DNA of 62,944 nucleotides, filler included, from Reclinomonas americana ATCC 50394 (Eukaryota): assembly GCA_048213135.1 (NCBI GenBank). It is 13 parts of 13 records of this genome, joined end to end, with 100 filler letters (N's around TTAATTAATTAA, not from the genome) between each part and the next. Parts side by side here need not be neighbours in the genome. Positions count along the whole stretch, not along the records: positions 58,106 to 59,927 come from AFZH01017267.1; 12 more parts are not named here. One strand, given 5' to 3'. Within the stretch, counting starts at the first letter, position 1. The number at the start of each line of letters is the position of its first letter. Shown here piece after piece: positions 59,382 to 59,927 of the stretch. The notes beneath the pieces were generated by a model. The model was given only the letters and a program-made list of their open reading frames with translations. It had not been told where the DNA came from and did not search any database. The position numbers and the translations under genes are program-made.

Positions 59382-59927
59382 ATGTTTCTTCGCTCACGCG
59401 CACTCGCACTTCTCTCCACTGTTCGACGACCATGGCAACAAAGCGCTGCGCTGTCGACATCGACTTCCGACGAGCGACGCATGCTCGTGCGCAACCCGCG
59501 CGTCGCTGAACGATATCACATCATGGACAGCATTGAGGTGTGTGTATGCATGCATGCAGGCGTGCGAGAGAGACTTGTCTGACTGTGCCACACGCGTGTG
59601 TGCGTGCGTGCAGTGTGGACTCTCACTGCTTGGATCAGAAGTCAAGGCTCTGCAGCGACCGGGAACCTCGTCTCTCGCCGGTGCCTTTGTCGACTATCGC
59701 AACGGAGAGGCATTCTTGGAGCAAGCAATGATTCCCGGTGAGACTCACTGCACACACACACGCACGCACTGACACTCACTCACTCACTCACTCACTGTTG
59801 TGAGCACAGTAATCAATGGCGGCTTCTATGGTCGACACGAGCCGTACCGATCGCGCAAGCTGCTTGCTCATCGACGACAACTGATTGCATTTCTCGATCC
59901 TGCGCGCCTGCCGGCCGATCAGCAACT
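59382..59927 (+). CDS. smpB: SsrA(tmRNA)-binding protein SmpB with N-terminal presequence, 3' partial
   Basis: Exons 59382-59537, 59614-59737 and 59810-gap give LVRNPRVAERYHIMDSIECGLSLLGSEVKAL..SLAGAFV...GEAFLEQAMIP...HEPYRSRKLLAHRRQL. Confidence 0.88.

Follow-up and report, generated by a model that had tools for sequence, protein, structure and literature searches.

The window that we analyzed is a 62,944-base stretch of DNA from Reclinomonas americana that consists of 13 contigs joined by 12 identical artificial linkers, each N44-TTAATTAATTAA-N44 (window positions 13243-61139). One of these contigs, 1,822 bases in length (58106-59927), carries two genes on its plus strand: a WD40-repeat gene at 58106-59319 and, at 59382-59927, what is, on the evidence of its sequence, the 5' two-thirds of a nuclear SmpB gene with spliceosomal-type introns. 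The SmpB gene is cut by the contig end at 59927, so that the last third of SmpB, that is, the remainder of the barrel and the basic tail, is absent from the contig. In bacterial SmpB the basic C-terminal tail enters and probes the empty mRNA channel. The initial annotation had treated the gap after 59927 as one that could be closed in order to check for this tail. That expectation had to be abandoned, as the run of Ns (59928-60027, no strand, N44, TTAATTAATTAA, N44) lies outside the SmpB gene and is one of the 12 linkers placed between unrelated contigs, and the DNA past 60028 is therefore unrelated to the SmpB gene. More generally, sequences that face each other across a linker are not genomic neighbours. 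When the whole window was scanned in six frames with the SmpB profile for the absent 3' part, just the three exons described below were found and, beyond those, (RE)n matches of no more than 6 bits. The GC content of the SmpB coding part is 0.57, compared to 0.565 for the window.

The SmpB fragment has three exons and two GT..AG introns, of 76 and 72 nt, and encodes 132 residues. Exon 1 (59382-59537, plus strand, as are all of the following) begins with an ATG start codon and encodes a 29-residue leader (59382-59468), after which the SmpB domain opens with its first strand at approximately residue 31. Intron 1 (59538-59613, 76 nt) offsets the reading frame by a single base. In exon 2 (59614-59737) lies the core motif block of SmpB, G-x-x-L-x-G-S-E-V-K and G-E-A-F-L. 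Intron 2 (59738-59809, 72 nt), which is in phase 1 and rich in CA and CACT, contains an in-frame TGA at 59770-59772. Exon 3 (59810-59927) covers the H-E-P-x-R-x-R-K-L-L block plus the beginning of the next helix, and is open-ended at the contig end. The boundaries of intron 2 are the sole frame-compatible GT..AG pair within the region searched. For intron 1 there are two frame-compatible donors, 59538 and 59544, six bases apart, and 59538 was taken because the profile alignment is then free of gaps. Both exon 1 and exon 2 end in G ahead of an ordinary GT donor, and no stop or frameshift was observed in any of the three exons. Once intron 2 is removed the spacing of Aquifex SmpB is regained, and only by removing both introns are the frame and the family spacing regained.

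Profile searches placed the encoded protein in the SmpB family. Exon 2 alone matched Pfam PF01668 (SmpB) with 28.8 bits (E 1.4e-6), which passes the cut-off of 27; exon 3 alone scored 13.3 bits to the same model, and exon 1 alone had no SmpB match in Pfam. A read-through query made of exons 2-3 with intron 2 included, as it is in the same frame, and with an X at the intron stop, reached 41.1 bits (E 2.2e-10) to PF01668. To the NCBIfam models TIGR00086 and NF003843 the scores were 43.8 and 44.9 bits versus curated cut-offs of 119-130, for a 104-residue partial query carrying a 24-residue intron insert and for equivalog models that are tuned to full-length bacterial proteins. Among solved structures the best match was Aquifex SmpB (1zc8_K, E 1.3e-7), in two stretches flanking intron 2. 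On an in-house profile built from 106 SmpBs, the spliced 132-residue product scored 90.5 bits in one unbroken stretch, which pairs residues 31-121 with profile positions 3-92; in a shuffle control (n = 200) the highest score was 2.5 bits. The exons scored separately gave 35.7, 22.7, and 8.0 bits on the SmpB profile, and that the spliced score exceeds each of these is as expected if the intron calls are correct. The motifs and the three-exon structure proposed for this locus in the initial annotation are thus present in the sequence, and the identification as SmpB, for which an HMM search had been suggested, was upheld.

Residues 30-121 span 24 columns that are invariant to 90% or more in 90 bacterial SmpBs, and the protein retains 19 of them. 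The departures are V41, an inserted Q66, I95, Q117, and L118; two of these, I95 in place of Y and Q117 in place of E, replace residues that are otherwise near-invariant.

The leader is, as had been described, rich in Arg, Ser, and Leu and free of acidic residues. Its first 29 residues include no D or E, four R, and many Ala, Leu, Ser, and Thr; if D and E were as frequent here as in the remaining protein, the chance that 29 residues include neither would be ~0.03. The profile match starts at residue 31, leaving about 28 residues ahead of the SmpB domain. Over the first 11 residues the helical hydrophobic moment is low (0.01-0.2); its maximum, 0.66, falls at residues 10-20, so that the leader is only moderately amphiphilic. 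Targeting was judged by leader composition, which is compatible with a mitochondrial presequence; the product is probably one that is sent into mitochondria.

The choice of start codon involves the gene upstream. The stop codon of the WD40-repeat gene is 62 nt before the SmpB ATG, on the same strand, and this spacer (59320-59381) is very short if it must hold a terminator and a promoter as well as two UTRs. A start at the alternative in-frame ATG, 59322, would lengthen the protein by 20 residues, two of them acidic; we preferred the ATG at 59382 because 59322 is only two bases past the WD40 stop codon. Since the spacer is so tight, there is room for other 5' structure, such as an upstream exon or another start, and it may be imagined, purely as an idea, that splicing over the 62-nt spacer could yield a WD40-SmpB fusion. 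A search with the WD40 gene gave generic WD40 matches with 31-57% identity among the 120 matches listed, many of them bacterial.

To place the SmpB among its relatives, we compared the read-through query with 1.84 billion representative proteins, which gave 18 matches at E ≤ 0.001, of which 16 were SmpB-like. The match whose best-scoring stretch falls on exon 3 (query residues 69-100) came from an oomycete, Aphanomyces invadans, and is its SsrA-binding protein (P0125, E 1.3e-5). The two of the 18 matches that are not SmpB-like, P0122 and P0123 (715 and 834 aa), were rejected as spurious, as they match the intron-encoded low-complexity insert only. With exon 2 as the query, a collection of 5.8 billion clusters yielded nothing at E ≤ 0.01 among proteins of 73-2000 residues, and a word-index search for longer proteins returned 12 candidates, none of which scored. 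A profile search was seeded with the Aphanomyces invadans SmpB, two further relatives, and the window exons. Among the best 120 of its 1,807 matches, the 13 named oomycete SmpBs came first, followed by bacteria; nothing was closer than the oomycetes, and no jakobid sequence was present among these 120.

The SmpB was placed in quick maximum-likelihood trees of 97 and 107 rows, for which 80 bacterial SmpB loci were fetched and which were built without cyanobacterial, plastid-type, Andalucia, Palpitomonas, Vannella, and Ancoracysta SmpBs. In these trees the Reclinomonas SmpB groups with 16 oomycete-type rows (13 named oomycetes and three relatives), with SH-aLRT values of 97 (97 rows) and 95 (107 rows), on a very long branch of ~1.9 changes per column for which the tree tool warns of long-branch attraction. 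When the eukaryotic rows were removed, the SmpB was without a supported place among the bacteria. A single clade of the eukaryote-type rows, the Reclinomonas SmpB, 24 alphaproteobacterial loci, and one alphaproteobacterial MAG was not rejected (p-AU 0.55), and thus an alphaproteobacterial origin is allowed, though not demonstrated.

The best identity to an oomycete row, 43%, hardly exceeds that to a bacterial row, 41%, and the median to the 90 bacterial rows was 35%. As a check independent of any tree, we defined an oomycete signature as the 19 columns in which 75% or more of the 13 named oomycete sequences have a residue that occurs in no more than 20% of bacteria. The Reclinomonas protein has 6 of these 19 residues, compared to a maximum of 4 and a median of 1 in the 90 bacterial rows. 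These signature residues lend modest support to the view that the kinship with oomycete SmpBs is real.

Three environmental proteins from ENA/Logan (P0131, P0133, and P0171, 109-128 aa) were observed to group with the oomycetes and to match their signature in 9-14 of the 19 columns, and all three diverge or stop early past the R-K-I-L block. One possibility is that they come from spliced genes of uncultured oomycete-like protists that were mis-called.

The nearest published systems are the mitochondrial SmpBs of another jakobid and of oomycetes. Andalucia godoyi was reported to have a nuclear, alphaproteobacteria-affiliated SmpB by Gray et al. (2020, PMC7050145). That protein (ANDGO_03389, 168 aa; PMC7050145) is likewise the product of a nuclear jakobid gene and has a short N-terminal extension ahead of the domain, and in Andalucia, as in Reclinomonas, the tmRNA is encoded in mtDNA and is without a tag reading frame. 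When the two proteins were compared by eye, both had a Cys in the E-x-G motif, and the Andalucia protein had, like that of Reclinomonas, Gln in the column of residue 117, a column that holds Glu in 89 of the 90 bacterial rows. There are also differences. The Andalucia gene is given as having 0 introns (PMC7050145), compared to at least two in the Reclinomonas gene; the loop before the R-K-L-L block, judged by eye, differs strongly between the two and is in Reclinomonas closer to that of oomycetes; and the Andalucia protein is complete, whereas that of Reclinomonas is without its last third.

The N-termini of the oomycete SmpBs (Phytophthora, Albugo, Saprolegnia, and Aphanomyces) are presequence-like, and their partner is an ORF-less tmRNA of the mitochondrion, as is proposed here. 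They are 39-43% identical to the Reclinomonas protein over about 100 residues and have in common with it V94, G101, R102, A113, L118, and F77. The Reclinomonas protein is, however, without 13 of the 19 signature residues, among them the W and the P that belong at residues 95 and 59, and oomycetes belong to a different eukaryotic supergroup. Hafez et al. reportedly described in 2013 an oomycete SmpB that is targeted to mitochondria, and Jacob et al. are said to have described in 2005 the plastid-targeted nuclear SmpB of red-lineage algae. The latter resembles the system proposed for Reclinomonas in being a nuclear gene whose product is targeted to an organelle with an organelle-encoded tmRNA. 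According to Hudson et al. (2014, PMC4131195), oomycete nuclear SmpBs carry mitochondrial signals; the same source has the plastid-targeted algal SmpBs clustering with Cyanobacteria and serving plastids, and the mitochondrial SmpBs clustering apart from Alphaproteobacteria in a preliminary tree. Bacterial SmpBs (PF01668, TIGR00086; solved structures include 1zc8, 1p6v, and 1wjx) have the same domain as the Reclinomonas protein, which differs from them in being encoded by a spliced nuclear gene and in bearing a leader. The bacterial tmRNA encodes a tag, and the jakobid tmRNA, according to PMC3590771, does not.

The conservation of the Reclinomonas gene bears on whether it makes a working protein. 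That all three exons are open, that both introns are bounded by GT..AG, and that 19 of 24 near-invariant residues are kept argues against a decaying or truncated pseudogene, a reading that would draw on the stop of the gene at the contig edge, on the altered near-invariant residues I95 and Q117, and on the long branch in the trees. Of these, Q117 loses some of its weight, because the apparent presence of Q at the same position in Andalucia godoyi SmpB (by eye) means that it is maybe a lineage trait and not decay. We consider a pseudogene without a working protein unlikely overall.

The alternative of a functional SmpB that acts in the mitochondrion is favored by what is published on jakobid tmRNA. 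All jakobid mtDNAs except that of Jakoba bahamiensis, and including that of Reclinomonas, encode a tmRNA, according to PMC3590771. As described there, this tmRNA is reduced and without a message-like domain; except in Jakoba libera, it has the two-piece form also seen in Alphaproteobacteria; and it is likely limited to freeing stalled ribosomes. The tmRNA of Reclinomonas mitochondria was, in the same account, the first found in any mitochondrion (PMC3590771). Two older papers (PMC1168896, PMC4103422) doubted its function because it has no tag reading frame. A further source (PMC11915505) states that mitochondrial tmRNA is without a tag frame and yet co-occurs with nucleus-encoded SmpB, and mitochondrial SmpB and tmRNA are also listed for oomycetes, Palpitomonas, Ancoracysta, and Vannella (PMC7050145). 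The suggestion in the initial annotation that this flagellate keeps a mitochondrial tmRNA rescue system and a gene-rich mitogenome agrees with these published jakobid data (PMC3590771). Its other suggestion, that SmpB is used without tmRNA, is made unnecessary by the ssrA that Reclinomonas mtDNA is reported to have (PMC3590771).

We hypothesize that the gene encodes a nuclear, spliced SmpB of Reclinomonas americana that is imported into the mitochondrion, where it partners the reduced, mtDNA-encoded tmRNA in ribosome rescue, and we consider this hypothesis to be well favored by the data as a whole. Judged from sequence features, the product most likely works with the mitochondrial tmRNA. SmpB would be made in the cytosol and its leader of ~29 residues, rich in Arg, Ser, and Leu and free of acidic residues, would take it into the mitochondrion. 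There, as suggested by the behavior of the family, the SmpB barrel would bind the tRNA-like domain of the ORF-less tmRNA, and the alanine-charged complex would be delivered to mitoribosomes stalled on broken messages. The ribosomes would then, as the literature has it, be freed without a degradation tag; jakobid rescue is thought to add no such tag because the tmRNA is without a message-like part.

A working SmpB that serves another compartment, or that acts without tmRNA, for example a plastid-type or a moonlighting protein, appears to us very improbable. Such a reading could appeal to the use of leader composition alone in judging targeting, and to trees that were built without cyanobacterial or plastid-type SmpBs. 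Jakobids are not known to have a plastid, which argues against a plastid-type SmpB. The Reclinomonas SmpB also groups with those of oomycetes, which were published as mitochondrion-targeted (PMC4131195), and the presence of ssrA in jakobid mtDNAs (PMC3590771) argues against a role without tmRNA.

There remains the idea that the locus is bacterial contamination, or an assembly chimera that merely looks spliced, for which a short contig (1822 bp) and the many bacterial look-alikes of the WD40 neighbour could be cited and which we regard as scarcely credible, given that the homology is interrupted exactly at GT..AG-bounded segments, one of them frame-shifting and one with a stop, that no bacterial SmpB was more than 41% identical, that exon 2 was without a match at E ≤ 0.01 in the 5.8-billion-cluster collection (proteins of 73-2000 residues), and that nothing closer than the oomycete rows was among the matches listed by the profile search (best 120 of 1,807). 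The statement in the initial annotation that the gene is not bacterial contamination is further strengthened by the other contigs, because eukaryotic chromatin genes in the assembly, together with the two spliceosomal-type introns, make contamination very unlikely. A Pfam search of 90 long ORFs of the window found a SWIRM-associated region 1 (33214-34002, minus strand, 61.6 bits), a Chromo domain (56149-56694, minus strand, 36.5 bits), and pieces of a WD40/THOC3-like propeller (4216-6028, plus strand), and only these. Rfam returned no RNA family at the gathering score over the whole window.

For the reading that we favor, a mitochondrial SmpB in Reclinomonas, the addition to what is known is modest, as jakobids were already known to have the mitochondrial tmRNA-SmpB system. 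That Reclinomonas has a conserved nuclear gene for the partner protein supports a working rescue system there. The gene also fills a gap stated in print by Gray et al. (2020, Table S3B, PMC7050145), who say of SmpB in the remaining jakobids, Andalucia aside, that it "has yet to be examined". Among the papers covered on SmpB together with jakobids or Reclinomonas, which do not include Hafez 2013 or Jacob 2004, none describes an SmpB of Reclinomonas. The gene is one more data point for mitochondrial trans-translation being ancestral and lost many times, and it leaves that view unchanged.

A broader reading can be offered, tentatively and with rather limited confidence. This would be the first SmpB from a jakobid besides Andalucia, and its derived residues that are common to oomycetes and mostly absent in bacteria may indicate that the scattered mitochondrial SmpBs are one lineage from the first mitochondrion and not the result of separate transfers. 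The Glu-to-Gln change, apparently common to Andalucia, could then be an adaptation to a tmRNA without a message.

Several minor observations were made in the course of this work. Among bacteria, three proteins from Myxococcota MAGs (P0182, P0183, and P0188; Polyangia-type) were observed to have the most residues in common with the eukaryotic mitochondrial type. They have the motifs E-C-G and L-L-A-H and 3-4 of the 19 signature columns, and they rank high in the profile search. A protein of 186 aa from a bacterial MAG (P0124, 'SsrA-binding protein, partial') has an apparent tandem internal duplication of the G-E-x-W-L to L-Y-F block, which is unusual for SmpB. In the window itself, GA/CT-type microsatellites were seen at 60943-61092, 62753-62851, 36680-36853, and other positions, often at contig ends. 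Translated as (RE)n or (SL)n, these repeats match the basic tail of the SmpB profile weakly and spuriously.
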